Shown here one piece after another: positions 1 to 33,004 of a stretch of 64,000 bases of DNA; the first letter of the stretch is position 1, and each line of letters opens with the position of its first letter. A program made the position numbers and the translations under genes. The notes beneath the pieces are model-generated. The model did no database searches, was not told the origin of the DNA, and saw only the letters and a program-made list of their open reading frames with translations. The DNA comes from Polyangiales bacterium (GTDB taxonomy: Bacteria > Myxococcota_A > Polyangia > Polyangiales > Polyangiaceae). The stretch is taken from assembly GCA_038210445.1 (NCBI GenBank), contig JBBQWQ010000021.1:53681-117680 (forward strand). Direction: 5' to 3'.

Positions 1-57
1 GCATAATACACGCATATCGCACAGGGGCCGTGCGTCGGTCGTGGTAAGAGCGAACCC

Positions 58-756
58 ATGAAGTCGCATCGCGAAGGACATCGGGGCAGTCGCGGCGGGT
101 GGTTGAGAGCCGCAGTGCTGGGCGCCGACGACGGCGTGGTCTCCACCGCGAGCCTGATGATCGGCGTGGCCGCCACCTCGGCCTCGAAGTCGGCAGTGCT
201 GGTAGCGGGCCTTGCCGGCCTGGTGGCGGGTGCCCTCTCGATGGCCGCCGGCGAATACGTTTCGGTGAGCTCGCAGCGCGACGCCGAGGAGGCCGACATC
301 GCCAAGGAGAAGGAAGAGCTGGATGCCGACCCGGCGGGCGAGCTGGAGGAGCTCGCCGCCATCTACCGCAGTCGAGGTCTCGACGCGGAGCTCGCGCAGA
401 AGGTGGCCGAGCAGCTGAGCGCCGCCGACAACCGTCTGGCCGTGCACATGCGCGACGAGCTGGGCGTCGAAGAGGCCACCCTGGCGCGCCCGCTTCAGGC
501 GGCGGTCGTGTCTGCCGCGAGCTTCGCCGGCCTTGCGGGGCTCCCCATCCTGGCGCTGCTGCTGGCGCCGGCTGCGGCGAGGGTGGCGGCGGTGGCGGGC
601 GTGAGCCTCTTGAGCCTGGCTGTCCTCGGTGCGCTGGGCGGCCATTTGGGCGGCGCGTCGAAGGCAAAGGCGGCGATGCGCGTGGTGCTCGGCGGCGGAG
701 CCGCGATGCTGGCTACCGCGCTCATCGGGCGGCTCATGGGTGTTGCGGGTCTGTAG
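58..756 (+). CDS. VIT1/CCC1 family (DUF125) Fe/Mn transporter-like membrane protein
   Basis: 232 aa starting at ATG 58. The N-terminal motif GADDGVVSTASLMIGVA and the hydrophobic C-terminal half are typical of the VIT family. Confidence 0.75.
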   Translation: MKSHREGHRGSRGGWLRAAVLGADDGVVSTASLMIGVAATSASKSAVLVAGLAGLVAGALSMAAGEYVSVSSQRDAEEADIAKEKEELDADPAGELEELAAIYRSRGLDAELAQKVAEQLSAADNRLAVHMRDELGVEEATLARPLQAAVVSAASFAGLAGLPILALLLAPAAARVAAVAGVSLLSLAVLGALGGHLGGASKAKAAMRVVLGGGAAMLATALIGRLMGVAGL

Positions 757-800
757 CGGTTCCCGGTTTCGAGCGCGCCGCAGAGTGGTAGAACCACCGC

Positions 801-1361
801 ATGAGCAAAGATATCTCCGTCGCCGTCATCGTGGGCAGCCTGCGCAAGGATTCCTTCAGCCGCAAGGTCGCCACCGCGCTCGCCACCCTCGCGCCCAAGA
901 ACCTGCACTTGGAGATCGTCGAGCTCGGCGAGCTCGCCATGTACAACCAAGACCTCGACGGCGCGCCGCCGGCCGCCTGGACGGCCTTCCGCGACAAGGT
1001 CCGCGCCGCAGGCGCCGTGCTCTTCGTCACGCCGGAGTACAACCGCTCGGTGCCCGCGGTGCTCAAGAACGCCATCGACATCGGCTCGCGGCCCTACGGC
1101 CAGAGCGCCTGGGACGGCAAGCCCGGCGCGGTCATCAGCGTCACGCCCGGAAACCTCGGCGGCTTCGGCGCCAACCACCACCTGCGGCAGTCGCTCATGT
1201 TCTTGAACGTTGCCACCATGCAGCAGCCAGAGGCCTACCTGAGCGGCGCCGGCACGCTCTTCGACGAGAACGGCGCGCTCACCAGCGATGCGACGCGCAC
1301 CTTCCTGGAGAAGTTCGCGGCCGCCTTCGCGGTGTGGGCGGAGACGCACCAGAAGGCCTGA
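801..1361 (+). CDS. NAD(P)H-dependent FMN reductase (flavodoxin-like fold, ChrR/YieF-like)
   Basis: 186 aa with the motifs VIVGSLRKDSFSRK and LFVTPEYNRSVPAVLKNAID, characteristic of the NADPH-dependent FMN reductase family. ATG at 801. Confidence 0.75.
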   Translation: MSKDISVAVIVGSLRKDSFSRKVATALATLAPKNLHLEIVELGELAMYNQDLDGAPPAAWTAFRDKVRAAGAVLFVTPEYNRSVPAVLKNAIDIGSRPYGQSAWDGKPGAVISVTPGNLGGFGANHHLRQSLMFLNVATMQQPEAYLSGAGTLFDENGALTSDATRTFLEKFAAAFAVWAETHQKA

Positions 1362-1382
1362 GGCGCCGCCGCTGGCCCGCGA

Positions 1383-3173
<1,791 letters not shown>

Positions 3174-3917
3174 CGTCCATCGTCACCGGCGTGCCGTCGG
3201 CCGAAACCAGCCGAATCGGCAGCGCCACCACTTCGCCGACCACCACCAGGCCTGGCAAATCGCGGCGGTCGAGCGGGAGCTCCACCCCCGGCAAGTCGCC
3301 CAACGTTCCCCTCCAGGCCCAGGCCCGCGCGGTGTGCGCGCCCAGCACAATCGCCGCTGGCAGTGTTGCAGAGAACCCGTGAGCCAAGGCGGTTCGCGTG
3401 ATCTCGACGCGCCGTCCGAGCGCCATCATGAACACGTAGGTGAGCGCGGCATGCGGTCCCGCTTCGAGCACCGAGACGTAGCTCTGGGCGGGCTCGGCCG
3501 ACAGCACCACGAAGCCGGAGGCCACCCCTCGGTGCGACACCGGGATGCCGAAGGCGCCGGGGCCGGCGATGGCGCTGCTGATGCCAGGAACGATGTCGAC
3601 TTCCAGCCCGGCCGCCGCCAGGGCCAGGGCCTCTTCGCCGCCGCGCCCGAACACGAAAGGGTCACCACACTTGAGGCGCACCACCCGGCGACCGGCGCGC
3701 GCCGCGCGCACCATGAGCGCCGAGATCTCCTCTTGGGTGATGGAAGGCCGCCCGGCGCGCTTGCCCACGTAGAACCGCGAAGCGGTCCCCGCTAGCTCCA
3801 GCACCCGCGGGTCCACCAGGGCGTCGTACAAGACGAGATCGCACGAGCCGAGAGCCCGCGCAGCGCGAACCGTGAGCAGATCAGGATCGCCCGGACCCGC
3901 TCCCACCAGCGTGACTT

Positions 3918-4508
3918 TCATGGGACCTCCCAAACGCGTTCTTCGCGTGCACCATACACTTTTTCCAGCGCCCGAAACAGCAGGTGGCGACGTTCACCGA
4001 AGGGCACCTGCGCCTCCTTCCACCGCGCGCGCTCGAGCCTCGCGAGGTCGAGCCAGCCGCCCAGCTCCTGGGGCAGCACGCTCTCGAGCGCCTCACGCAG
4101 CAGGCGCACCAACGCCGGCGCGTGCCCACCGGTGGAGATAGCGAAGGTGACGCCGCCGCGCTCCACCCGCGCTGCGCCGAACGCGGTGGCCGACGCCAGA
4201 TCGTCCACCGCCACCACGAAGCGGGCCTCGGCATCGCAGGCCTGCCGCACCGCCCGGTTCACCTCGGGCGTGGCCGCCGCCACCACGAACCAAGCGCCGT
4301 GCACGTCGGCGGGAACGAAGGCGCGCTCCGCCAGCGATACGCCGAGCTGGCGAAAGGCAGGCAGGCTCTCCGGCGCCACCACGTCCACCCGAGCGCCCGC
4401 CCGGAGCAGGAGCTCGGCCTTCTCCAGCGCCACCGGGCCGCCGCCCACCAAGAGAATGCGGCGTCCCGAGAGCTTGAGAAAGAGGGGCATGAGCTGGGGC
4501 TCGTTCAT
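3918..4508 (-). CDS. precorrin-2 dehydrogenase / sirohydrochlorin ferrochelatase (CysG N-terminal/SirC/Met8-like)
   Basis: The real start is ATG 4508 (MNEPQLMPLFLKLSGRRILLVGGGPVALEKA), a Rossmann GxGxxA motif typical of siroheme synthase N-domains. The 128 codons upstream in the listed ORF are Arg-rich frame artefact. The stop overlaps the cobA start (ATGA), and the start overlaps the cysH stop (ATGA). Confidence 0.7.
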   Translation of the reverse strand: MNEPQLMPLFLKLSGRRILLVGGGPVALEKAELLLRAGARVDVVAPESLPAFRQLGVSLAERAFVPADVHGAWFVVAAATPEVNRAVRQACDAEARFVVAVDDLASATAFGAARVERGGVTFAISTGGHAPALVRLLREALESVLPQELGGWLDLARLERARWKEAQVPFGERRHLLFRALEKVYGAREERVWEVP

Positions 4509-5236
4509 GGGGCTCCTGTGGCCTGGCGCGCGGGGTGAGAAGGGTGCAGTCCACACTCTTTTTGATCGGGGCTTTCCCAGTAAAAACGGCCCGCGCGCAC
4601 GTCGTCGTCGGGGCCAATGGCGCGGGTGCACGGGGCGCAGCCGATGGATCGAAAGCCCTGGCCGTGGAGCGGATTGAGCGGCACATCGTGTGCGCGCGCG
4701 TAGTCGAAGACATCGGCCTCCGACCAGGCGGCGAGGGGCGCGACCTTCACGATGTCGCCATGGGCTGCGTCGACCTCGAAGGTGGCCAGGCCGCCTCGGG
4801 TCACTGCCTGGTCGCGCCGGAGCCCGGTGATCCACGCGCCGCGGCCAGCGAGCGCGCGGCCCAGCTGCTGCACCTTGCGCACGTCGCAGCACGCCTTCCG
4901 TGCCTCGACCGATCCGCGAAAGCCCAGGACACCCTGCGTACGCACCAGGCGCTCGACCAGGGGCGCCGAAGGGAAATAGACCGCAATCGGCACGGCATAG
5001 CGCGCCTGCGCCTCGGCCAACAGGGCGTAGGTCTCCTCGTGCAGGCGTCCGGTATCGAGGAAGAAGACGTGCGGCAGGGCGAGACCATGCTCCCGGTGGA
5101 GATGCGCGACCTCGCGCAGGAGCACCATGTCCTCGGCGCCCAGGCTGGTGGCCACGGCGAGCGTGCCCCCGAAAGACTCCATGGCCCAGCGAATGACCTC
5201 GCGCGCGGCGGCGCCTTCGGGCGGACGCGGGCTCAC
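4505..5236 (-). CDS. cysH: adenylylsulfate (APS)/PAPS reductase, thioredoxin-dependent, Fe-S type
   Basis: PAPS_reduct-family core (EVIRWAMESFGGTLAVATSLGAEDMVLL) plus the C-terminal motifs KACCDVRKV and IGCAPCTRA. GTG 5236 gives 243 aa, matching the length of characterised CysH proteins. It overlaps the upstream PQ-loop ORF stop as GTGA. Confidence 0.8.
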   Translation of the reverse strand: MSPRPPEGAAAREVIRWAMESFGGTLAVATSLGAEDMVLLREVAHLHREHGLALPHVFFLDTGRLHEETYALLAEAQARYAVPIAVYFPSAPLVERLVRTQGVLGFRGSVEARKACCDVRKVQQLGRALAGRGAWITGLRRDQAVTRGGLATFEVDAAHGDIVKVAPLAAWSEADVFDYARAHDVPLNPLHGQGFRSIGCAPCTRAIGPDDDVRAGRFYWESPDQKECGLHPSHPARQATGAP

Positions 5237-5574
5237 GACGAGGCTCCGGAGAGCGGGGTCATCGCCGGCACCCGGGGCGCAGACACCTCGAGCTCGCGGT
5301 ATACGCGGCGAGCGCGGTGACGGTACCAGAGCACCTGGGTGAGCAGCACCGCGCGCAGGGCGATGCCGAGCACCAGCCCAGCGACGAACATGTGCTCGTT
5401 CTTCGAGGCGGAATACACCAGCGCGCAAACGCGCCCCAGAAGGTTGAGGCCGGGGAAGAACAGGCTCACATCCTCCGATCGCTTCAGCCGATAGAGGCGC
5501 GCGATCTGCGGAAGGTAGGAGCCTTCGATGGCCAGGAGACCGATGCTGCCGAAGAGCCAGTTGATATCCGTCAT
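5233..5574 (-). CDS. small 3-TM PQ-loop (SemiSWEET/MtN3-like or LAB_N-like) membrane protein
   Basis: 113 aa with three hydrophobic segments and a PQ motif after TM1 (GSYLPQIARLYRLKRS). ATG 5574 has a purine-rich GAGAAGAAG upstream. The stop overlaps the GTG start of cysH. Confidence 0.55.
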   Translation of the reverse strand: MTDINWLFGSIGLLAIEGSYLPQIARLYRLKRSEDVSLFFPGLNLLGRVCALVYSASKNEHMFVAGLVLGIALRAVLLTQVLWYRHRARRVYRELEVSAPRVPAMTPLSGASS

Positions 5575-5626
5575 AACGACTTCTTCTCAGATAGCAGACG
5601 AGTTTCCGTTATGCTAGATATTCGGA

Positions 5627-6544
5627 GTGACCCGATCATCGCCTTCTTCGCCCACCCATCTTCGTGCCCTCGAGGACGAAGCCATCTTCGTATTCCGCGA
5701 GATCTGCGCCGAGCGCGAGCGCCCGGCCCTTCTGTTCTCCGCCGGGAAGGACTCGCTGGTGCTGCTGCGACTGGCGGAGAAAGCGTTCCGTCCGGCGCGC
5801 TTCCCCTTCCCGCTCCTGCACGTAGACACCGGTCACAACTTTCCCGAAGCCATCGCGTTTCGCGATCGCAGGGTAGCCGAGCTGGGAGAGCGCCTGATCG
5901 TCGCGTCGGTAGAAACGTCCATCGCCCAGGGCCGGGTGACCGAAGAGACCGGACCGCGCGCGTCGCGCAATCGCCTGCAGACGGTGACGTTGCTCGACGC
6001 CATCGCCGAGCATGGCATCGACGCAGCGTTCGGCGGCGCCCGACGCGACGAAGAACGCGCCCGGGCCAAGGAGCGGGTCATCAGCTTTCGCGACGAGGCC
6101 GGCCAGTGGGACCCCAAGAACCAGCGGCCCGAGCTGTGGGACCTGTACAACACCGACGTTCGGCGCGGTGAGCACCTGCGGGCCTTCCCCCTCTCCAACT
6201 GGACCGAGCTCGATGTGTGGGAGTACATCCGGCACGAACAGCTGGAAGTGCCCTCCATCTACTTTGCCCACCAGCGCGAGGTGTTCTCGCGCGACGGCAT
6301 GCTGTACGCCACCTCGGCATTCGTCACCCGCTCGGCGCGTGAGGTGCCGTTCCGCGAGACCGTGCGCTTCCGCACCGTGGGCGATATGAGCTGCACCGGC
6401 GCCGTACGCAGCACCGCGCGAACGCTCGACGCCATCATCGACGAAGTGGTCTCCGCCACCGTCACCGAGCGCGGCGCCACCCGGGCCGACGACAAGTTCA
6501 CCGAGGCTTCGATGGAAGACCGCAAACGCGAGGGATACTTCTGA
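5627..6544 (+). CDS. cysD: sulfate adenylyltransferase subunit 2
   Basis: 305 aa. THLRALEDEAIFVFREI aligns with the CysD N-terminus, and the PAPS_reduct-like core is present (LLFSAGKDSLVLL). Confidence 0.9.
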   Translation: MTRSSPSSPTHLRALEDEAIFVFREICAERERPALLFSAGKDSLVLLRLAEKAFRPARFPFPLLHVDTGHNFPEAIAFRDRRVAELGERLIVASVETSIAQGRVTEETGPRASRNRLQTVTLLDAIAEHGIDAAFGGARRDEERARAKERVISFRDEAGQWDPKNQRPELWDLYNTDVRRGEHLRAFPLSNWTELDVWEYIRHEQLEVPSIYFAHQREVFSRDGMLYATSAFVTRSAREVPFRETVRFRTVGDMSCTGAVRSTARTLDAIIDEVVSATVTERGATRADDKFTEASMEDRKREGYF

Positions 6545-7791
6545 TGACCACGTTGCTACGAGTGTGCACCGCAGGAAGCGTCGACGACGGCAAGAGCACG
6601 CTCATCGGTCGACTTTTGTTCGACGCCAAAGCGCTCATGAGCGACCAGCTCACCCAGGTGGAGGAAGCGAGCCGGCGCCGGGGGTTTGCCCGAACCGAGC
6701 TGGCGCTGGTGACCGACGGCCTGCGCGCCGAGCGCGAGCAAGGCATCACCATCGACGTGGCCTGGCGCTACTTCTCGGTGCCCGGGCGCCGCTTCATTCT
6801 GGCCGACACACCAGGACACGTGCAATACACACGCAATATGGTCACCGGCGCTTCTACCGCAGAGGCGGCGCTGTTGCTGGTCGACGCCCGGCAGGGGCTC
6901 ACCGAGCAGTCGCGAAGGCACCTGTACCTCACCACGTTGCTGGGGGTTCGGCACCTGGTGGTGGCCATCAACAAGATGGACCAGGTGGCGTTCTCGTTCG
7001 AGCGCTTCGCGGAGATTCGCGACATCATCGACGCCTACCTGCGCGACCATACGCGCGGCGCCGCCAGCGTGGTGTACGTGCCGGTGTCGGCGCTGCACGG
7101 CGACAATGTGGTTACCCGCTCCGGCCGCACGGCCTACTACCAGGGGCCCACCCTGCTCGAGCACCTCACCCTGCTCGACACCGTGCGCGACGAGGCCCAC
7201 GCGCCGTTTCGCCTCCCGGTGCAGTGGATCGTGCGGCCGCAAACCGACGCCCACCACGACTACCGCGGCATCGCCGGGCGCATCGCCGCCGGTACGGTGC
7301 GGGTGGGCGACGCCATCACGGTGCACCCTTCGGGAAAGACCAGCACCGTGCGCGCGCTCGAGACCAGCGGCGGCCCGGTAGAGGAAGCCCGCCGCGGCGC
7401 CTCGGTGACGGTGCACCTGGAGCACGACGTCGACGTGAGCCGCGGAGACGTGCTCGCGGCAGCGGCCACGCCGCCGCGCATCGGCCAGGATCTGGTGGCC
7501 GACCTGGCGTGGTTTTCGCCAAGGCCGGCGGAAGCGGGCAAGCGGTACCTGCTCAAGCACACCACGCGAACCACCAAGGCCACGCTCGCGTCGGTGGAGC
7601 ACGTCATCGACGTCGCCTCCGGCGCGGCGCTCGCGAAGCGCGACGTGGAGGAGAACGACATCGCGCGCGTGGCCTTCAAGACCGCGGCGCCCCTGGTGTG
7701 GGAGCCCTACGAGACCGACCGCATTCTGGGCAGCGCCCTGTTGGTCGACGAGACGACCCACGAAACCCTGGGCGGGCTGATGCTGCGCTGA
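6544..7791 (+). CDS. cysN: sulfate adenylyltransferase subunit 1 (GTPase), not fused to APS kinase
   Basis: GTPase motifs GSVDDGKST, DTPGH and NKMD. 415 aa with no CysC domain. Its start overlaps the cysD stop (TGATG). Confidence 0.9.
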   Translation: MTTLLRVCTAGSVDDGKSTLIGRLLFDAKALMSDQLTQVEEASRRRGFARTELALVTDGLRAEREQGITIDVAWRYFSVPGRRFILADTPGHVQYTRNMVTGASTAEAALLLVDARQGLTEQSRRHLYLTTLLGVRHLVVAINKMDQVAFSFERFAEIRDIIDAYLRDHTRGAASVVYVPVSALHGDNVVTRSGRTAYYQGPTLLEHLTLLDTVRDEAHAPFRLPVQWIVRPQTDAHHDYRGIAGRIAAGTVRVGDAITVHPSGKTSTVRALETSGGPVEEARRGASVTVHLEHDVDVSRGDVLAAAATPPRIGQDLVADLAWFSPRPAEAGKRYLLKHTTRTTKATLASVEHVIDVASGAALAKRDVEENDIARVAFKTAAPLVWEPYETDRILGSALLVDETTHETLGGLMLR

Positions 7792-7822
7792 ATAGGGAGC
7801 GCGAGGCCACCGTCCAAGGCCC

Positions 7823-9094
7823 ATGACTTTTCTTCCTTCGTCGGTCGCTCGAAACACGGCAATTTGCGGCCTCATCGCTGCGTCGCTGGGCTGCGGCGCG
7901 GGTACCGTGGAGCACGGCGCGGTCGATCTCGCCATGACCAGCGCGTACCGACCGACCCGCGGGCATGGGCATGGGCAGGGGCTCGGGAGCGAGAGCGCGC
8001 TGGCGGTCGGGGAGGCTGCCCCCCGCTATCACCTTCTGGGCGGCGATCTGCACTGCCACGTACTGCCGCCCGACGACGCCACCCACGTGTCGCGCTCGCT
8101 CCACGACACGGTGGCGTTGGCCAAGCGCGAGGGGCTCGACTTCGTGGTCCTCACGCCCCACGTTGCGGCGCGCTTCCAAGAAGACGAGGACGCCCGCCGC
8201 GAGGTGGTGCGCGAACAGCGAGCCCTCAAGGACGCCATCAGCGGCGAGTCCCTGGGCGGCCTCATGGTGGTTCCCGGCTTCGAGTACACCGACCACGAGC
8301 TGGGGCATGCGGGCGTAGCCTTCGCCGATCTGGAGCGGGTTCTGGAGAGTGTTTCCGTGCAAGATGCACGAAAGAGCCCAGGGCTATTTTTCGAGCGCTG
8401 GGTCGAGAAGGGCGGCCTCCTGGTGGTGAACCATCCGCTGGTCACCGCCCTCCCCTCCGGGCCCTCCATCGCCCGCGCCGACCTCTCCTGGCGCCCGCTC
8501 ACCGCCCCGGGTCCGGGGTCGGGCGGGCTCCGCGGCGACATCGACGCCATCGATCGCCTGGCGAGTGGCTTCGAGGTGTACAACCTCACCGCCACCCACC
8601 TTCGCGACCGGTACCTGCAGGGCGACACCGACAAGACGCTGCTCGCCACCCTGCTCCGCCTCGACCAGGAGATTCCCCTCCGCAATCGCCGCATGACCCC
8701 CATCGGCGGCACCGACAGCCATAGCTACCACCTACGGCCCACCACCTACGTGCTGGCCGAGACGCGCAGCATCGAGGGCGTGCGTGCCGCGGTAGCGGCA
8801 GGCCGGACCTGTGTGCGCGCACCGGAAGCGTGCTCGCTCGAAGCCCGGGTGCCGGACCAAAGATTCGCCGGCTGGTCGCCGCTGGGCGCCAACCTGATCA
8901 CCGCCGGCGAGGTCGAGCTGCGAGCCACCGGCGACGACATCGAGCTCTACCGCGACGGCGCGGTGGTGGCGACGCCGGCCTCCGGCGCCACGGTGCGGGT
9001 GCCGGTACCTGCTGGCAAGTGCTCGGTGCTGCGGGCGCGGGTGGGCAGGGGATTTTCCGCCCCCATCTACGCCAACTGCGACATTCGCACCTGA
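7823..9094 (+). CDS. secreted/lipoprotein PHP-domain metal-dependent phosphoesterase
   Basis: Signal peptide with a lipobox (AASLGCGAG). PHP motifs LLGGDLHCHVLPPDD and IGGTDSHSY. Confidence 0.65.
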   Translation: MTFLPSSVARNTAICGLIAASLGCGAGTVEHGAVDLAMTSAYRPTRGHGHGQGLGSESALAVGEAAPRYHLLGGDLHCHVLPPDDATHVSRSLHDTVALAKREGLDFVVLTPHVAARFQEDEDARREVVREQRALKDAISGESLGGLMVVPGFEYTDHELGHAGVAFADLERVLESVSVQDARKSPGLFFERWVEKGGLLVVNHPLVTALPSGPSIARADLSWRPLTAPGPGSGGLRGDIDAIDRLASGFEVYNLTATHLRDRYLQGDTDKTLLATLLRLDQEIPLRNRRMTPIGGTDSHSYHLRPTTYVLAETRSIEGVRAAVAAGRTCVRAPEACSLEARVPDQRFAGWSPLGANLITAGEVELRATGDDIELYRDGAVVATPASGATVRVPVPAGKCSVLRARVGRGFSAPIYANCDIRT

Positions 9095-9099
9095 GCGGT

Positions 9100-9993
9100 T
9101 CAGCGCGCGGCGCGCAGCATGGGCACGAAAGCCTTCACGAAGGCCTCGTCGCTGCTCGGCTGCTGCCCGGTGACAAGCTCGCGATCAACCACCACGTGGC
9201 TCGCCCACATGGGTGCAGTATCCACGTTTCCCCCGGCAGCGCGTAGCGCGTCGTCGGGGTAGAAGCGCACCTTGCCTCCCAAGAAGGCCTGACTGCCGCC
9301 CTCTTCCACCGTCTGCTCCTCGGCTGCGCTGAACACCGTCATGCGGTACCCAGCGTACGGCCAGCCGCGCCGTAGCTCGGCAGTGCGCGCCTCGTCGTGA
9401 GCCGCGAGGGCGGCGGCCAGCTCCTTGGGCTGGGCGGTGGCAGCGAGCAACGCGAGTGGCCCGTGACAAAGGAGACCGGTGGGCCGCTGGTGATCGTGAA
9501 ACCAGCGCAGCGTCTTTCCCACCACCGCGTCGCTCGCCAGATCACCCATGGGCGCGTGCCCACCGGGAACGAACACGCCGCGGTAGCGGTCGAGGCCGGC
9601 CGCGACCACATCCCCCAGGCGGCGTGGATGCAAGAGCTCGGGCAGGCTGGCTTGCAGCGTCTTCATGCGCTGATGGAGCGCGCGATCGCCATGAAAGTAC
9701 GCAACGTCGTCGGAGTGCACGTCCATCACCGACGGCGTTCCTTCGGGGTTCGCGAAAACCAGGCGAACCCCCGCTTCTTGCATAGCGGCGACCGGCACCA
9801 TGAGCTCATTGAGAAAGTAGCCGGTCGCGAGCGTCTTGCCGCCTTGCAGGTCGATGGCGTTGCGGCTCGAGAGGATGACCAGCACCGTCGGCGCGTCGGT
9901 TTCGGCCTTCACTGCGGCTGCCGACGGGGCCGCAGACCCGGTCTGGGTGCCGGCATTGCACGCCAGGAGCACAACCAGTGCCAGGGCTTTCAC
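9100..9993 (-). CDS. DJ-1/PfpI (class I glutamine amidotransferase-like) family lipoprotein
   Basis: Only the C-terminal 297 codons of the 982-aa listed ORF look real. GTG 9993 is preceded by GAGGTG. Lipoprotein signal VKALALVVLLACNAG. DJ-1-type motif LLCHGPLALL. Confidence 0.65.
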   Translation of the reverse strand: MKALALVVLLACNAGTQTGSAAPSAAAVKAETDAPTVLVILSSRNAIDLQGGKTLATGYFLNELMVPVAAMQEAGVRLVFANPEGTPSVMDVHSDDVAYFHGDRALHQRMKTLQASLPELLHPRRLGDVVAAGLDRYRGVFVPGGHAPMGDLASDAVVGKTLRWFHDHQRPTGLLCHGPLALLAATAQPKELAAALAAHDEARTAELRRGWPYAGYRMTVFSAAEEQTVEEGGSQAFLGGKVRFYPDDALRAAGGNVDTAPMWASHVVVDRELVTGQQPSSDEAFVKAFVPMLRAAR

Positions 9994-10682
9994 GGGCGCA
10001 CCTCGGCCGAGCCTTTCAGGAGCTTCACCACGGCTTCGCCCACCGCCGGCGCCGAGGCCGGGTTCTGGCCGGTCACCAGCCGCTCCGAGACCACCACCTG
10101 ACTCTGCCAGTTGGGCGCCGGACGATGCGTGGCGCCGCGCTCCGTGAGACGGTCGGCCAGCAGGAAGGGCACCACCTCGGCCAGCCCCGCCGCGCGCTCT
10201 TCCTCGTTGGTGAACGCCGCTACCTCCTTGCCCGCCACCAGGTACGCGCCCGAGCGCAGGCGAACGTTCACCAGGGCGGCCGGCCCGTGGCACACCGCGG
10301 CGACGACGCCGCCCTGTTCGTAGATGCGCGCCGCCACGCCGGCCAGCGTGGCCTCGTCGGGAAAGTCCCACATGGTGCCGTGACCACCCGCGTAGAAGAT
10401 GGCGGCGTAGCGCGCCGGATCGACGTCGCGGGGAGCGGCGCTGGCGTGGATGCGCGCCAAGGTGGCGGCGTCGTCGAGCAGGCGCGCGTTCACCAGATCC
10501 TTGCGATCCACGCCGTCGAGCGGCACCTCGCCGCCGCGCACCGAGACGAAGTCGACGTCGAAGCCAGCATCGGTAAAGGCGGCCCAGGGGTGGGCTATCT
10601 CGGCCAGGTAGGCGCCGGTGGCCTTGCCGGTGCTGCCGAGCGTCGCGTGGCTGGTGAGGGCGATGAGAATGCGGTGTTTCAT
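9990..10682 (-). CDS. DJ-1/PfpI family protein (Hsp31-like glyoxalase/deglycase class), cytoplasmic
   Basis: 230 aa with the motifs AVCHGPAAL and IFYAGGHG. AAGGAG lies 7 nt upstream of ATG 10682. The stop overlaps the GTG start of the downstream DJ-1 paralog (GTGA). Confidence 0.7.
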   Translation of the reverse strand: MKHRILIALTSHATLGSTGKATGAYLAEIAHPWAAFTDAGFDVDFVSVRGGEVPLDGVDRKDLVNARLLDDAATLARIHASAAPRDVDPARYAAIFYAGGHGTMWDFPDEATLAGVAARIYEQGGVVAAVCHGPAALVNVRLRSGAYLVAGKEVAAFTNEEERAAGLAEVVPFLLADRLTERGATHRPAPNWQSQVVVSERLVTGQNPASAPAVGEAVVKLLKGSAEVRP

Positions 10683-10698
10683 GGGATGCTCCTTCTTT

Positions 10699-10713
10699 CC
10701 GAGGGCGTCTCGG
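10699..10713. promoter_or_regulatory. palindrome CCGAG-N5-CTCGG in LysR/DJ-1 divergent intergenic region
   Basis: A perfect 5+5 dyad 17-31 nt upstream of the DJ-1 start codon and about 60 nt upstream of the LysR start. LysR proteins bind dyads in divergent promoters of this kind. Confidence 0.3.
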
Positions 10714-10770
10714 TGAAGGCAATGTGCGCAGCGCCGCGCCCCACCGGTAGCCCATCAGGTGACGTAACAG

Positions 10771-11718
10771 TTGTTCTCTGGTGTAATGAATTGCATGCGC
10801 GACGAAGAAACCACGGGCCACCTGGGCCTCGAGAGCACGTTGCCCAATCTGCTTTCGTTCTGTCGGACCTTCGAGCGCGGCAGCTTCACGCGGGCCGCCA
10901 AGGCGCTGCGAATCACCCCGGCCGCCGTGAGCCGCTCGGTGGCGCGGCTGGAGCGCGCTCTTGGCGCGACCTTGTTCCGGCGCACCACGCGCGAGCTGCG
11001 CCCCACCGCCAAGGGGCGCGCCTACTACGAAAAGTGCGCGGCTGCGCTGCGCCTCCTGGCCACCGGCGAGCAAGAGCTCCTCGACGCAGAAGACGGCCCC
11101 GCGCCCCAGGGCCTGGTGCGCGTCAGCGTCCCCACCACCTACGGCCTGCGGAGGCTCTTGCCGCAGATGGGCGGATTCCGCGAGCGCTACCCCAGCATCG
11201 AGCTGGAGCTCCACGTGTCGAACCAGAACATCGACTTCGTGCGCGAGGGCTTCGATCTGGCGGTGCGCATGGGCGTCATCGGCGACGCCGGCATGGTCGC
11301 ACGCAAGCTCGGCGACTTTCCCCAAGGCGTGTTCGCCAGCCCGGCGTATCTGGCGCGGCGCGGCGCGCCCGGCAGCGTCGGCGACGTCGCCGCCCACGAT
11401 TGCATCGCCTTCGTCATGCCCAGCACCGGCCGCGTACTGCCCTGGTTGTTCGCGTCGCCGAACCGCGAGCTCGTGCCTCCCGCGCAGGTGCGGTGCGCGG
11501 AGGATCCCCACGGCGGCATCGCCCTCTGCAAGGCCGGCCTGGGCCTCTTTCAGACCTACCGGTTCCTGGTGGAAGACGAGGTAGCGCGCGGCGAGCTTTC
11601 GGAGGTGCTGCGCGCGCGCGGCGGCCGCACCCGGCGCTTCTCGCTGCTGTACCCGAAGGACGGCCTGCGCTCGCGGGCCGTGCGGGCGGTGACCGATTTC
11701 ATCCTCGAGCGCCGCTAG
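10771..11718 (+). CDS. LysR-family transcriptional regulator
   Basis: N-terminal HTH (FTRAAKALRITPAAVSRSVARLERALGATLFRR) and a LysR substrate-binding domain. Divergent from the DJ-1 pair. The start may instead be the internal ATG at 10795. Confidence 0.85.
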   Translation: MFSGVMNCMRDEETTGHLGLESTLPNLLSFCRTFERGSFTRAAKALRITPAAVSRSVARLERALGATLFRRTTRELRPTAKGRAYYEKCAAALRLLATGEQELLDAEDGPAPQGLVRVSVPTTYGLRRLLPQMGGFRERYPSIELELHVSNQNIDFVREGFDLAVRMGVIGDAGMVARKLGDFPQGVFASPAYLARRGAPGSVGDVAAHDCIAFVMPSTGRVLPWLFASPNRELVPPAQVRCAEDPHGGIALCKAGLGLFQTYRFLVEDEVARGELSEVLRARGGRTRRFSLLYPKDGLRSRAVRAVTDFILERR

Positions 11719-11844
11719 CCCTTTCCATGGCTCGCGGATCATCCAAGGCTCACCCCAGAAGCAAGGCGATCTCGCCGGAACGTTTCTGCGCGGTAGTCCT
11801 CGGCTGTCGCATCGTATGCTCACCGTGGTGCAGGAGGCAGGATC

Positions 11845-13386
11845 GTGATCCCCAAGAAGCTGGTGGCCGTGACCACGGTGAAGTCGCTCCCCGAGGGCAA
11901 GGCCACGCTGGTCAAGCAAGGCAAGCGGCGGCTCGCTTGCGTGCGCTCCAAGGGTGCGGTGCACGTGCTGGAAGACGCGTGCCCACACGAAGGTCACCCG
12001 CTCTCGATGGGGCTCGTTCGCGACGGCGTCCTCACCTGCCCTTGGCACAACTGGAAGTTCGAGCTAAGCACTGGCCGCTGCGTGTTCGGGGGCGAGTCGG
12101 CGCGGCGCATCGATGCCGAGGTGCACGACGGCGAGGTCTTCGTGGCGGAGGCCAGGGACGATGCGCGCGATCGCGACCGAATCGAGACCGACATGCGGCG
12201 AGCCCTCCACGAGCGCCGCGTGGACGGCGCTACCCGAGAAGGCCTGAGGCTCGCCCTCCACGACGAGGAGGCGCCGTTCGACCTGCTCCTCGAGGTGGCG
12301 TTGGCGGTGGCTCCCTACGGGCTCGGAGAGCCGGCCTGCGCCGTGGGCGCGGCGCGGCGCTTGATGCGCGCAGGCGTGCTCACGGGCGCCGAGGCACTCG
12401 CGGCAACGGCCGAAGCAATCTGCCGCGCGCCCATGGGTGCGCCCACGCCGGAGGGAGGCCCTGCCGCTTTCGAGGCCGATCGAGACGCCCTGCTCGACGC
12501 GCTCCTCGAAGAGCGACGCAGCGAGGCCATCGCGAGGGCCATCGCCGACGAGCGTCCATTCGAGGAGCTGGCTGCGAGCACGTTCTACCCCTTGGCGTCG
12601 CTCAAGCTCTTCGATGGGGGCCTCGCCGTGGTGCGCATCGCCATGGCCGCACATCTGACGCGGTCATTTCCAGAGCGCGCGGCAGCGTTGCGCGGCGCGA
12701 CCGCTCGCATGCTGGGTTGGGCAGTGGCGCGCTCCGACCTCCCGAGCTGGCGCGCCACGCGTGGCGGCATCGCCGAGGCGCTACGCAGCACCCACTTCGT
12801 TGAGAGCCGCGAAATACAGGGAACCTACACGGACCAGCTCCTACTTTCGGAGCGCAAGGCGGTGGCGGCTACGCTGGCGCTGCTCCGCGCGGGGGTCGCC
12901 CCGAAGACCCTGCTCCACCAGGCAGCACAGGCGGCGACGCACAGGCTCGCGCACTACGACGCGCGGTGGTCGATACGCGGCGGCTCCACCGTGACCGTGG
13001 CCGAGCCGGTGGTGGGGTTCCTCTTCGCACGGGCAGCGCAAGCGCTGGAGCTCCCCCCCGATGCGCGATTCGGCGCGCCACTCGCGGTACAGGTGGCGGG
13101 CCTCGTGGGTCGACTGGGGCGGGTCTCATTGCCGGCCCCCGGCGCCGCGGCGCCTACCGGAGAAGCCAGCCGCGACCAGCTACGCGACGTGGTGCTCGCC
13201 AGCGCGCTCGCCGAGGCGAACCCGGCGATGGCTCTGCTCGCTGCCGATGCGCTCGCCGAAGACCACGCCAGCCAGGAGCTGATTCGGCCGATCCTCGACG
13301 AGCCGCGCGGCGCTCGTATCGCGCGCTTGGCGCTGAACGCCGAGCGCGTGGTTCGCACCCGGAGGCCCCACGACGGCATCGACTGA
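11845..13386 (+). CDS. Rieske [2Fe-2S] domain protein fused to ~400-aa helical domain of unknown function
   Basis: GTG 11845 with GGAGG 9 nt upstream. Rieske boxes CPHEGHPL and CPWHNWKF lie in the first 100 aa. The remainder is Ala/Leu/Arg-rich with no recognised family. Confidence 0.65.
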   Translation: MIPKKLVAVTTVKSLPEGKATLVKQGKRRLACVRSKGAVHVLEDACPHEGHPLSMGLVRDGVLTCPWHNWKFELSTGRCVFGGESARRIDAEVHDGEVFVAEARDDARDRDRIETDMRRALHERRVDGATREGLRLALHDEEAPFDLLLEVALAVAPYGLGEPACAVGAARRLMRAGVLTGAEALAATAEAICRAPMGAPTPEGGPAAFEADRDALLDALLEERRSEAIARAIADERPFEELAASTFYPLASLKLFDGGLAVVRIAMAAHLTRSFPERAAALRGATARMLGWAVARSDLPSWRATRGGIAEALRSTHFVESREIQGTYTDQLLLSERKAVAATLALLRAGVAPKTLLHQAAQAATHRLAHYDARWSIRGGSTVTVAEPVVGFLFARAAQALELPPDARFGAPLAVQVAGLVGRLGRVSLPAPGAAAPTGEASRDQLRDVVLASALAEANPAMALLAADALAEDHASQELIRPILDEPRGARIARLALNAERVVRTRRPHDGID

Positions 13387-30655: not shown

Positions 30656-30997
30656 TTGGGGACGCAGCCACCTGCGTTTGCGTAGTTGGTGTCACTCATC
30701 TCGTGGCGAGCATTTTCCAGGCGCCCGCCCAGGGTGGCTCGGGCGGGTCGGCCAGTGCATGGTAGAGCGATATTTCTGCATGCTGCCACACGACGGTGAT
30801 CGTGCGGATGCCCGCGAGCTTTCGCAAGGCGACGTTCTGCCCGCAGTCCCGATAGGACCGCTCGGGCTCCGGCTCGCGTTTTTCCGGTGCCGCGCGCCAG
30901 CGCCTGCCAGGAAGTTGGCTCCTTTCGCCCAGCTCCGTACGCTTTGCGCTGCGCAGAATGAGGGCGAATCCTCGGAGTGCGCACCTGGAGTCGACAC

Positions 30998-33004
30998 ATG
31001 GCGGAGAATCTTCCCCTTCTCATCATCCTCATCGTCATCGCGGTGCTCATCGTGTTCGGCACGCTGATCATGGTGGCGAGGTTCTATCGGCAGGTAGACC
31101 AAGGCCGCGCCCTCATCGTGAACACGATGCGCTCGGAGCCGGTCGTCACCTTCACCGGTGCGGTGGTTTACCCCATCGTCAACCGCGCCGAGCTCATGGA
31201 CATGTCGGTGAAGATGGTCGAGATCGACCGCCGCGGAAAGGAGGGGCTCATCTGCAAAGACAATATCCGCGCAGACATCAACGTGAGCTTCTTCATCCGC
31301 GTGAACAAGACCCAGGAAGACGTCCTCAAGGTGGCGCAATCGGTGGGCTGCGCCCGCGCCTCCGACGCGGTAGCCCTGCGCGAGCTCTTCAGCGCCAAGT
31401 TCTCCGAAGCCCTGAAGACCGTGGGCAAGCACTTCAACTTCGAAGACCTTTACAAGATGCGCGAAGAGTTCAAAGACCAGATCATCAAGGTCATCGGTCG
31501 CGACCTCAACGGCTTCATCCTCGACGACGCCGCCATCGACTTTCTCGAGCAGACGCCGCTCTCGTCGCTCGACCCCAACAACATCATGGACGCCGACGGT
31601 ATCCGCAAGATCACCGATCTCACGGTGATTCAGAACGTGCAGACCAACGAGCTCCGGCAAAAGGAGCGCATGGAGATCGGCAGCCAGAACCTCACCGCCG
31701 ACGAAGCGGTGTTCCGCTTCGAGCAGCGCCGGGCCGAGGCCGAGGCCAAGAAGGAACGCGAGATCGCCGTCGCCAAGACGCGCGAGCAGAACGAGGCCCA
31801 GCGCATCGCCTCCGACGAGCACAAGAAGACGCTCCTGGTGCAGCACAAAAACGACGAGGAATCGAGCATCGCCGACCAGGCGCGGGCACGCGGCATCGCG
31901 GTGGCCGAGAAGAACCGCGAGCGGGAAATCGCCGTAGAAACCGAGCGCGTCGAGAAGGCGCGGCAGCTCGAGGTCATCAACCGCGAGCGCGAAGTCACCC
32001 TCGGTACCATCGCCAAGGAGAAGGAAGTCGAGCTCCAGAAGAAGGAGATCGCCGACGCCATCCGCGCCCGTATCGCCGTCGACAAGACCGTCGCCACCGA
32101 GGAAGAGGCCATCAAGGATCTGCGCGCCAACTCCCAGGCCACCCGCGAGAAGGACGTTATTCGCATCGCCGCCGAGGCCGAGGCCCAGGGCTCGCTCGTC
32201 AAGCAGATCAAGGCCGCCGAGGCCAGCGAAGAGGCCGCCAAGTTCAAGGCCCGGGAGAAGATCGTCACCGCCGACGCCGAGCTCGACACCGCCGACAAGG
32301 TGGCGCGCGCGAAGATTCGCCTGGCCGAGGGCAAGCCGGCCGAGGCCGCCGCCGAGGGCCTGGCCAACGTGAAGGTGCGCGAAGCCGACGCCGTCGCCAC
32401 CGAGAAGCAGGGTCGCGCCGCCGCCAACGTGGTGCGCGAGAAGCTCCTGGCCGAAGCAGCAGGCGACGAGCAAAAGGGCCTCTCTGCAGCCCGGGTGAAG
32501 GAAGCGGAAGCCGCCGCCATCGAGAAGCGCGGCGCCGCCGACGCCTCCGCCACCCGGCAAAAGCTCTTGGCAGAAGCTGCGGGCATCGCCGAGAAGGCCT
32601 CGGCCATGAAGGCCCTCGACGAGGCCGGTCGCGGCCACGAAGAGTTCCGACTCCGGCTCGACAAAGAGAAGGTGGTGGAGCTCGAGTCCATCAGGAACCG
32701 GAAAGACATCGCCACCGCCCAGGCCGAGGTCATGAAAGAAGCCTTCAGCCACGCCAAGATCAACATCGTGGGCGGCGACGGGCAGTTCTTCGATCGCTTC
32801 ATCAAGGCCGTCTCGGTGGGTCAATCCATCGAGGGCGTCATGGACCACAGCGAGACCGTGCGCACGCTCGCGCAAGACGTGCTGGGCAAGGCCTCGGGCG
32901 ATCCCGCCATCGCCGGCCTGCTCTCGCAGTTCATGAGCCGGGCCGACGACGCCCAGAAGGCGCGCCTGCAGCAGCTTCTGAGCGCCGGCACGCCTACCAA
33001 GTAA
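30998..33004 (+). CDS. flotillin-like SPFH/Band-7 family protein (YqiK-like)
   Basis: ATG 30998 with an N-terminal TM segment (LPLLIILIVIAVLIVFGTLIMV), an SPFH domain and a long Ala/Glu/Lys-rich coiled-coil (EA repeats) typical of flotillins. The stop lies 5 nt upstream of the next start. Confidence 0.85.
   Translation: MAENLPLLIILIVIAVLIVFGTLIMVARFYRQVDQGRALIVNTMRSEPVVTFTGAVVYPIVNRAELMDMSVKMVEIDRRGKEGLICKDNIRADINVSFFIRVNKTQEDVLKVAQSVGCARASDAVALRELFSAKFSEALKTVGKHFNFEDLYKMREEFKDQIIKVIGRDLNGFILDDAAIDFLEQTPLSSLDPNNIMDADGIRKITDLTVIQNVQTNELRQKERMEIGSQNLTADEAVFRFEQRRAEAEAKKEREIAVAKTREQNEAQRIASDEHKKTLLVQHKNDEESSIADQARARGIAVAEKNREREIAVETERVEKARQLEVINREREVTLGTIAKEKEVELQKKEIADAIRARIAVDKTVATEEEAIKDLRANSQATREKDVIRIAAEAEAQGSLVKQIKAAEASEEAAKFKAREKIVTADAELDTADKVARAKIRLAEGKPAEAAAEGLANVKVREADAVATEKQGRAAANVVREKLLAEAAGDEQKGLSAARVKEAEAAAIEKRGAADASATRQKLLAEAAGIAEKASAMKALDEAGRGHEEFRLRLDKEKVVELESIRNRKDIATAQAEVMKEAFSHAKINIVGGDGQFFDRFIKAVSVGQSIEGVMDHSETVRTLAQDVLGKASGDPAIAGLLSQFMSRADDAQKARLQQLLSAGTPTK

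Follow-up and report, generated by a model that had tools for sequence, protein, structure and literature searches.

In a window of 64,000 nucleotides from a member of the Polyangiales (the whole stretch of DNA analyzed), a small PQ-loop gene stands at the head of the sulfate-assimilation operon. Its product is a member of a separate subfamily of SemiSWEET-fold membrane proteins, as yet without a name, that is linked to assimilatory sulfate reduction in at least two bacterial phyla. The probable function of this SemiSWEET-like protein at the head of cysH operons is the transport of sulfate or a related sulfur anion, which would make it a carrier not described before. In the literature, we found no bacterial report linking a PQ-loop or SemiSWEET protein to cysH, sulfate assimilation, sulfite reductase, a sulfate transporter, or APS reductase, and a published survey of SemiSWEET gene contexts contains carbohydrate operons only, in agreement with the initial annotation, which had called such a protein undescribed in cys operons. 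The Arabidopsis cystinosin homologue that is co-expressed with sulfur-starvation genes is a loose parallel and not evidence.

The gene lies at positions 5233 to 5574 of the minus strand, starts with ATG, and encodes 113 amino acids. It had been described as a three-helix protein with a PQ motif, and this was borne out: the translation contains P22-Q23, matches Pfam PF04193 (PQ-loop) over residues 4 to 58 (36.0 bits, with a curated gathering cut-off of 22; E value of 6.1e-9; 29 to 35 bits in its relatives), and is predicted by the AF2 model to form helices at residues 5 to 30 (kinked at the PQ), 39 to 57, and 62 to 98. The GC3 of the ORF (0.85) is similar to that of the adjoining genes. On the grounds of GC3, protein conservation, and a confident fold, a spurious ORF or leader peptide was rejected; the ORF is a genuine gene, and its product is a three-helix SemiSWEET-fold membrane protein. 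At an E value of ≤1, the window protein had no match to PF07578 (LAB_N) or PF03083 (MtN3_slv; only 13 to 15 bits in relatives against a cut-off of 23.7) and none to the CysZ, SulP, CysTW, PiT, or TSUP/TauE models of Pfam and NCBIfam. It remained below the cut-off of NCBIfam SemiSWEET_2 (NF037968), with 20 bits against 80.

The AF2 model, built on an alignment of 54 sequences, had a pLDDT of 90.8 and a pTM of 0.73 (an alignment of 19 sequences gave a pLDDT of 72 and an uninformative Foldseek result). The best 14 Foldseek matches in the PDB were all SemiSWEET structures (TM of 0.7 to 0.9, 1.3 to 3 Å), the closest superposition being on 4RNG, with a TM of 0.91 and an rmsd of 1.3 Å over 82 columns. 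Along similar lines, the subfamily profile gave full-length matches in the PDB to SemiSWEETs only (E values of 1e-3 to 1e-2). LAB_N identity was rejected on these results together, with PF07578 unmatched, PF04193 above its cut-off, and the model superposing on SemiSWEETs. The known SemiSWEETs (PDB 4QNC, 4QND, 4RNG, 4X5M/N, and 9KAX) share with the window protein a length of ca. 90 to 115 residues, three transmembrane helices, the PQ hinge in TM1, the intracellular gate (Y20, D/E35, S37, and F40), and the extracellular Tyr (Y54). We infer an N-out/C-in topology, and by homology, assembly as a homodimer and alternating access would be expected.

The PQ-loop gene is the first of a minus-strand chain that continues with cysH, a sirC-like gene, cobA, and sir and is divergent from cysDN. 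All three short overlaps reported in the initial annotation could be read in the sequence: GTGA between the PQ-loop gene and cysH (5233 to 5236, with the stop codon at 5233 to 5235 and the cysH GTG at 5236 to 5234, an arrangement of translational coupling), ATGA between cysH and the sirC-like gene (4505 to 4508), and ATGA between the latter and cobA (3918 to 3921). The product of cysH (4505 to 5236, minus strand) is an Fe-S type APS reductase (PAPS_reduct; NF002537, 237 bits) with CC...CxxC and ECGLH motifs, and the CC...CxxC motifs visible in the translation point to the APS-reductase type. The sirC-like gene (3918 to 4508, minus strand; TIGR01470) codes for a precorrin-2 dehydrogenase/ferrochelatase equivalent to the CysG N-terminal domain, and cobA (3127 to 3921, minus strand; TIGR01469) codes for uroporphyrinogen-III C-methyltransferase. 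For the NirA-type assimilatory sulfite reductase gene sir (1383 to 3173, minus strand), the longest ORF starts at 3173, so that the 47-nt overlap with cobA given previously is a maximum; the likely start is a GTG in the same frame at 3140, 6 nt past a GGAGG, with which the overlap shrinks to 14 nt. Remoter Sir orthologues align from residue 27 onward only.

On the plus strand, cysD (5627 to 6544) begins 52 bp from the start codon of the PQ-loop gene and is followed by cysN (6544 to 7791), identified with Pfam/NCBIfam and devoid of an APS-kinase domain; a plasmid megablast gave weak cysN-type matches only. The cysD/PQ-loop intergenic region contains an operator-like motif, TCTAGCATA-N11-TCTGCTAT (5591 to 5618, minus strand), an imperfect inverted repeat with TAGCA/TGCTA cores that occurs once in the window (0 expected by chance) and is kept in all 13 Polyangia loci examined. 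Rfam gave no RNA element of any kind in positions 1 to 12000 (E value of ≤1), and so no riboswitch or leader upstream of the PQ-loop gene, and no sigma-70 promoter or terminator was detected in 5200 to 6000. Other transporter families were absent from the 39 window genes scanned and from the cys clusters examined, and there were no carbohydrate or lipid A genes near the PQ-loop gene.

In an exhaustive HMM search, a score break separated the subfamily (ca. 57 clusters at 50% identity, 147 to 80 bits) from generic PQ-loop proteins (≤67 bits). Its signature consists of E17, P22-Q23, P41, N44, G47-R48, A51, G70, R74, and Q80, and the window protein carries E17, P41, N44, G47-R48, G70, R74, and Q80 in addition to the PQ motif. 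In order to measure conservation, 82 subfamily members were compared with 44 generic three-helix PQ-loop proteins. Among the former, R48 and R74 are conserved in 100%, E17 in 99%, and N44 in 96%; the hinge is kept (P22, 93%; Q23, 100%), as are the equivalents of the gate residues, with Y20, D/E35, S37, F40, and Y54 corresponding to Lb F17, D32, S34, M37, and Y51. The two sugar-binding positions differ: Lb Trp48 is replaced at A51 (Ala, 72%; Gly, 11%) and Lb Asn64 at F/L67 (Phe, 82%; Leu, 13%), whereas E17, N44, R48, and R74 are new invariants of the subfamily. The roles of SemiSWEET Trp48, Asn64, Thr13, and the gate residues have been described (PMC5972207). From the alignment and helical periodicity, R48, R74, E17, and N44/Q80 would lie on the pore-lining faces of the helices. 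The protein core holds no conserved Cys or His able to carry electrons.

Gene context was compared among 25 distinct members (<90% identical) from Polyangiaceae/Labilithrix, Armatimonadota, and unassigned metagenomes; named carriers are Polyangiaceae, Labilithrix luteola, Chthonomonadetes, and Fimbriimonadaceae. In 20 of the 25, cysH is immediately downstream of the PQ-loop gene, in most cases with an RTGA overlap, a recurrence that rules out a chance arrangement, and 23 are in contact with sulfate-assimilation or siroheme genes. The tie to the sulfur pathway, which the initial annotation had drawn from gene position, is supported by the presence of the small ORF directly 5' of cysH in all 13 Polyangiaceae/Labilithrix/Myxococcales loci, and likewise upstream of cysH in Armatimonadota and unassigned-metagenome loci, as well as by the HMM results above, in which PF04193 was the family recovered. 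Neither of the outcomes that the initial annotation had named as refuting its idea, absence of the ORF from orthologous operons or a confident LAB_N classification, was observed. Operon architectures vary by lineage: cysD and cysN divergent from PQ-cysH-sirC-cobA-sir, sat-PQ-cysH-sir-sirC-cobA, PQ-cysH-sir-cysK, and cobA-sir-DUF934-PQ-cysH-cysD-cysN. The PQ/cysH junction is an RTGA overlap (all Polyangia loci plus L036/37 and L038), a TGATG overlap, or a spacer of 15 to 18 nt with AGGAGG. In the most divergent member tested (P0076), the gene is again 5' of cysH. At L025/26, it adjoins sir-DUF934 and cbiX, with no adjacent cysH on contigs of ≤4.7 kb, and in a sister clade, a 136-residue protein with no match in Pfam takes the place of CysH, the 4-nt overlap being retained. 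One Armatimonadota lineage has a frameshifted PQ-loop gene with sat and cysH intact, which hints at dispensability. Overall, the gene is linked to the inorganic steps (sat/cysDN, cysH, sir, and siroheme genes) far more frequently than to cysK/cysE. One member adjoins genes for a rhodanese and a Cys/Met PLP enzyme.

Given the loss of the sugar-binding Trp and Asn and the invariant R48, R74, E17, and N44/Q80 on faces that would line the pathway, we propose a sulfur oxyanion, not a sugar, as the substrate. Our preferred reading, to which we give slightly less than an even chance, is a homodimeric sulfur-oxyanion carrier serving assimilatory sulfate reduction, most likely by H+-coupled uptake of sulfate or thiosulfate; transport activity, substrate, direction, dimer formation, and proton coupling are what we infer for the window protein. 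Synthesis of the protein is coupled to that of APS reductase, and the anion taken up would feed CysDN or Sat, then CysH, and then Sir. Proton coupling may take place at the two E17 carboxylates per dimer, so that a divalent anion could be imported electroneutrally. This would parallel H+/pyruvate symport by the mitochondrial pyruvate carrier MPC1/MPC2 (SLC54), a six-helix, SemiSWEET-like dimer of three-helix bundles that moves a small anion and a proton by means of basic residues in the middle of the cavity (K49 and H86; PMC12007569). MPC is a functional precedent for the proposed mechanism, but it is a eukaryotic heterodimer with N-terminal amphipathic helices and a monovalent organic anion as the substrate, and it has no detectable sequence similarity to the window protein (Foldseek E values of 4.5 to 9). 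The conserved translational coupling suggests, in addition, a possible complex with APS reductase. Somewhat less likely is the full version of this reading, in which a proton-coupled sulfate/thiosulfate importer, possibly complexed with APS reductase, accounts for uptake in Polyangia, Armatimonadota, and other lineages; no smaller sulfate transporter would then be known, and the SemiSWEET fold would have its first inorganic-anion substrate.

The physiological role proposed here is filled elsewhere by the known bacterial sulfate and sulfite transporters CysPUWA/Sbp, SulP, CysZ, PiT-type CysP, TSUP/TauE-SafE, and YeeE/TsuA, to none of which the window protein, far smaller than any of them, has a sequence or fold relation. 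The closest parallel in gene order is Bacillus subtilis, where the gene for the PiT-type sulfate permease CysP is inside the cysH operon, directly after cysH, and so beside cysH like the PQ-loop gene. Some points count against anion import. Characterized SemiSWEETs are sugar uniporters, and in the uniport of a divalent anion, the membrane potential drives it outwards, favoring an exporter unless protons are coupled. The partner that replaces CysH in the sister clade also counts against uptake of a sulfur oxyanion. What makes the substrate question directly testable is the combination of a clear pathway assignment for a SemiSWEET-fold clade, a remodelled arginine-bearing pocket, and the availability of at least one carrier in culture (Labilithrix luteola DSM 27648). 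If sulfate, thiosulfate, or sulfite is moved, the subfamily would be a new transporter class for bacterial sulfur assimilation and would close a gap in genome-based sulfur-metabolism models of Myxococcota and Armatimonadota; with MPC as the other case, it would mean that the minimal six-helix SemiSWEET architecture was adapted to anions more than once.

The main rival, which we consider unlikely, is a sulfite/bisulfite efflux valve: when sulfite reductase cannot keep pace with APS reductase, the dimer would export the toxic sulfite, and co-translation with CysH would set the exporter level to sulfite output. The gene is placed strictly 5' of cysH, whose product makes sulfite, and not beside sat/cysDN, whose products consume sulfate; this is no less compatible with a sulfite-related role than with uptake, and the coupled position directly 5' of cysH is kept whatever the other operon content. 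An arginine-lined path would suit an anion, exit of which is favored by the membrane potential in a simple uniporter (the known SemiSWEET mode), and TauE/SafE-type sulfite exporters are typical of sulfite-producing operons. However, exporting an intermediate is wasteful in an ATP-costly assimilatory pathway, with Sir encoded in the same operon at most loci; uniport offers no evident task for the invariant E17; and at L025/26, the gene is found beside sir-DUF934 and cbiX, with no adjacent cysH on these short contigs.

It seems improbable that the protein has no transport function and instead, as a membrane anchor or an assembly partner, tethers or regulates APS reductase (or the 136-residue protein of the sister clade). 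That the 4-nt overlap with the next gene is kept across phyla, even where the partner differs, suggests stoichiometric co-production. Against such an accessory, the subfamily has kept the SemiSWEET hinge as well as both gate clusters, and the subfamily-specific invariant residues are in the membrane helices, where they are predicted to face the pore and not the cytoplasmic surface. The core also lacks conserved Cys or His for electron transfer, and thioredoxin-dependent assimilatory APS reductase is not known to require a membrane.

Of similarly low probability is a carrier of an organic sulfur metabolite, such as cysteine, cystine, S-sulfocysteine, or O-acetylserine, which would follow the analogy with cystinosin-type proteins made in the initial annotation. 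The shared PQ-loop family (PF04193) and the link to sulfur amino acids stand: PQ-loop proteins include carriers of cystine and basic amino acids, and in cystinosin/PQLC carriers, protons are coupled through an acidic residue near the PQ motif. An Arg and Glu pair could bind a zwitterion, and the rhodanese and Cys/Met PLP enzyme genes beside one member, as well as cysK as the last gene of another operon, would fit. The resemblance is nonetheless marginal (profile E values of 0.2 to 0.5, against ca. 1e-3 for SemiSWEETs; Foldseek E value of 1.7); cystinosin/PQLC proteins are eukaryotic, lysosomal or vacuolar, and have seven transmembrane helices with two PQ repeats per chain, compared with one repeat and three helices in the 113-residue window protein, and the predominance of inorganic-pathway linkage over cysK/cysE speaks against an organic substrate.

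An ordinary sugar SemiSWEET or LAB_N-type domain lying beside cysH by chance, which the SemiSWEET fold and some database names might suggest, is effectively refuted and was rejected, given the replaced sugar-binding Trp and Asn, the score below the SemiSWEET_2 cut-off, the missing PF07578 and PF03083 matches, the lack of carbohydrate or lipid A genes nearby, and a synteny with sulfur assimilation (in contrast to the carbohydrate metabolism context of SemiSWEETs) that persists in the 20 members across differing operon architectures. JGI annotates several members as "lipid-A-disaccharide synthase-like uncharacterized protein," a name that goes no further than the COG level.

The 113-aa three-helix protein that the initial annotation took for a PQ-loop transporter of a sulfur species, or an accessory factor of the pathway, is encoded by a genuine gene (5233..5574, minus strand, ATG start), with a GC3 of 0.85 next to neighbors at 0.82 to 0.95, and its product matched the Pfam PQ-loop family (PF04193) at 36 bits, above the gathering score of 22. 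The 4-nt overlaps described for the chain that follows were all found: GTGA between the PQ-loop gene and cysH (4505..5236, minus, GTG start), ATGA between cysH and a sirC-like gene corresponding to the CysG N terminus (3918..4508, minus), and ATGA again before cobA (3127..3921, minus). Pfam and NCBIfam established the identities of these genes and of the NirA-type sulfite reductase gene (1383..3173, minus) at the end of the chain. The overlap between cobA and the latter (3127-3173) does exist, although 47 nt is its maximum length; GTG 3140, in frame and 6 nt downstream of GGAGG, would reduce it to 14 nt and is probably the true start rather than ATG 3173. The CysH translation contains the CC...CxxC and ECGLH motifs, which in this family are the mark of the Fe-S, APS-reducing type. 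On the opposite strand, cysD starts 52 bp from the PQ start codon, and cysN (6544..7791) is without an APS-kinase domain by NCBIfam.

The 52-bp region between cysD and the PQ-loop gene contains a conserved motif, TCTAGCATA-N11-TCTGCTAT (5591-5618, minus), an imperfect inverted repeat with TAGCA/TGCTA cores ca. 20 bp apart. The window contains a single copy, where none would be expected by chance. The motif lies upstream of the PQ-loop gene in 13/13 Polyangia loci and is probably an operator or shared promoter element serving both divergent operons, cysDN and PQ-cysH. The window also encodes a LysR-type regulator (10771-11718, plus). Convergent with the sulfite reductase gene, just past its 3' end, are genes for a VIT1-family, iron/manganese transporter-like protein (58-756, plus) and an NADPH-dependent FMN reductase (801-1361, plus). 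Farther away, an 1,853-aa protein (33010-38571, plus) with DUF3686 ("ATPase involved in DNA repair," 610 bits), DUF7902, and an AAA domain is preceded by a 675-aa protein without a Pfam match (30977-33004).

Relatives of the PQ protein were gathered by exact homologue look-up, a scan of GTDB species genomes, and a metagenome scan, and their loci were annotated by tblastn with the window Cys proteins and additional queries. After PQ proteins at least 90% identical were collapsed, 25 distinct members with context remained; cysH lay directly downstream in 20, and at least one sulfate-assimilation or siroheme gene adjoined PQ in 23. Polyangiaceae, Myxococcales MAGs, and Labilithrix luteola DSM 27648 share the arrangement of the window, cysN<cysD<|PQ>cysH, followed in many by sirC>cobA>sir, and Chthonomonadetes and other Armatimonadota have sat>PQ>cysH>sir>sirC>cobA. 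Other orders were PQ>cysH>sir>cysK (L029) and cbiX..cobA>sir>DUF934>PQ>cysH>cysD>cysN..cysK (L036/37), and PQ precedes cysH even in the most divergent member tested (P0076, 80 bits). The junction is an RTGA 4-nt overlap in 13/13 Polyangia loci, L036/37, and L038, TGATG in L035, and a 15- to 18-nt spacer with AGGAGG in Armatimonadota. The gene is a near-obligate, translationally coupled neighbor of APS reductase within a sulfate-assimilation set, in at least two phyla. In the five cases without adjacent cysH, PQ is followed by a 136-aa gene in L025/26, beside sir-DUF934 and cbiX, and in L027/28, on short contigs; by sirC-cobA in L033; in L034, where the contig ends, cysD is divergent; and L039 (P0054, 3061-3534) has a rhodanese and a Cys/Met PLP enzyme upstream and a contig end 105 nt past PQ.

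The 136-aa cytoplasmic protein, found in a sister clade (P0068, P0070, and P0174), is GTGA-overlapped by the PQ gene in place of cysH (L025:1869-2279, L027:681-1091, and L028:391-801, plus), and in L025 the pair is situated between cbiX and sir-DUF934. It had no Pfam match, has the conserved motifs GLHFEVL...VGSVVYSGG.VAW.K..SAERRWLFE.L and WRLEG, and may be a novel partner in sulfur assimilation. In two PQ clusters unrelated to each other, DUF934 (L036:4426-4992 and L025:2273-2803) comes directly after sir; this pairing is familiar from proteobacterial cys clusters, and to our knowledge DUF934 itself is uncharacterized. A +1 frameshift affects the PQ gene of one Armatimonadota lineage (P0077, 11 contigs; L023:1489-1848 and L024:1336-1695) at a run of T residues close to codon 64; the C-terminal third is still conserved in the shifted frame, and both sat and cysH are intact. 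The cause could be recent pseudogenization, a recurrent assembly error, or frameshifting.

A word-indexed search recovered only 19 clusters (53 to 85% identity), the named ones being Polyangiaceae MAGs, and an exhaustive HMM search gave 565 matches with a clear break in scores: a subfamily of ca. 57 clusters (50% identity) at 147 to 80 bits, with fragments next and generic PQ-loop proteins last, at ca. 50 bits. Neither MtN3_slv nor LAB_N matched the window protein at an E value of ≤1 in Pfam, so that the LAB_N assignment contemplated in the initial annotation does not apply. Searched against PDB sequences, the family profile had full-length matches to SemiSWEETs only (4QNC, 4RNG, 5UHS, 4X5M, and 9KAX; E values of 1e-3 to 1e-2), cystinosin coming next (0.2 to 0.5). 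An AlphaFold2 model built from 54 family sequences (an input of 19 had given a poor model) reached a pLDDT of 90.8 and a pTM of 0.73, with helices at 5-30 (kinked at P22-Q23), 39-57, and 62-98. In Foldseek against the PDB, its best 14 matches were all SemiSWEET structures (4RNG: target-normalized TM-score of 0.91, rmsd of 1.3 Å, 82 columns), with cystinosin, MPC, and SWEET13 ranking far below. The protein has the SemiSWEET fold, with hinge and gates intact, and a predicted N-out/C-in topology, since its basic loop 1 (R26, R29, K31, and R32) and basic C-terminal tail agree with the positive-inside rule.

Across 54 members, Q23, G47, R48, G70, and R74 were invariant, and E17, S19, Y20, P22, L27, S37, F40, P41, N44, V81, and Y84 were at least 90% conserved. 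An alignment of 82 family members was set against an outgroup of 44 generic three-helix PQ-loop proteins, among them the sequences of 4QNC and 4RNG. E17 (99%; V/Q/A in the outgroup), R48 (100%), and R74 (100%) correspond to T14, V45, and V71 of LbSemiSWEET, and N44 was 96% conserved. The SemiSWEET sugar pocket consists of Trp48, Asn64, and Thr13 (PMC5972207); the sugar-stacking Trp48 aligns with A51 (A in 72%, G in 11%) and Asn64 with F/L67. From this alignment, the sugar pocket is seen to be exchanged for an Arg/Glu/Asn-bearing surface. Equivalents of the gate residues (inner gate F17, D32, S34, and M37, with Y51 part of the outer gate; PMC5972207) are kept as Y20, D/E35, S37, F40, and Y54. 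Conserved polar and charged residues are spaced i, i+3/4, i+7 from pocket positions on TM2 (N44, G47/R48, A51, and Y54) and TM3 (67, G70, R74, and V81); given the alignment and this helical periodicity, they should face one common central path. Despite its Pfam membership and fold, the protein should not be labeled a sugar SemiSWEET, since it lacks the sugar-pocket Trp and Asn and scores below the curated threshold of NCBIfam (SemiSWEET_2, 20 bits against 80).

The PQ protein would act as a homodimer by alternating access on a sulfur oxyanion, and we tentatively favor uptake of sulfate or thiosulfate, a prediction that we regard as quite possible, on four grounds. The operons encode every step of the route from sulfate activation to sulfide together with siroheme synthesis, and no other transporter family was found in the collected PQ clusters or among the 39 window genes scanned with Pfam. 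The Bacillus subtilis cysH operon has the sulfate permease gene cysP beside cysH. Moreover, the four Arg and two Glu of the dimer (net +2) would suit a divalent anion, and a protonatable E17 could render import electroneutral, as in MPC, the structurally closest non-sugar carrier, which imports pyruvate thus using K49 and H86 (PMC12007569). Sulfite efflux, the main rival, would fit the strict pairing with an enzyme that produces sulfite and the fact that anions are driven outward, but export would waste a costly intermediate and Sir is co-encoded in most cases, which makes it rather unlikely. A nontransport partnership with CysH is improbable, as the gating machinery is conserved and the invariant residues are placed inside the membrane; an organic sulfur substrate is equally improbable, since the gene is linked to the inorganic steps of the pathway. 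Both a sugar SemiSWEET that is adjacent by chance and a LAB_N domain are effectively excluded. The initial interpretation, which depended on recurrence in orthologous operons and on a fold other than LAB_N, has withstood both comparisons and extends from one operon to a multiphylum subfamily, with function as a prediction.

CysZ, SulP, CysTW, PiT-CysP, TSUP/TauE, and YeeE bear no relationship to the PQ protein. Full-text literature searches gave no account of PQ-loop or SemiSWEET proteins encoded in bacterial cys operons, in keeping with the novelty originally proposed; a published survey dedicated to SemiSWEET gene context reports carbohydrate-related operons only, without a word starting with "sulf." Public labels of members are "PQ-loop repeat-containing protein," "hypothetical protein," and, at the COG level, "lipid-A-disaccharide synthase-like." The fold was already known; the predicted substrate class and the conserved pathway context are new, and the long-open role of bacterial SemiSWEET-fold proteins becomes directly testable for one clade with a cultured representative.

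Some members have C-terminal extensions. One subclade (P0046, P0054, P0062, P0064, P0071, and P0073) has cytoplasmic tails of 50 to 110 aa with a conserved cysteine pair, e.g., LLLQPVLCHADSCQ and MCQPEECG, and extensions of other kinds are found in P0040 (239 aa) and P0056 (190 aa). The cysteine-pair tails may serve in sulfur relay or redox sensing.
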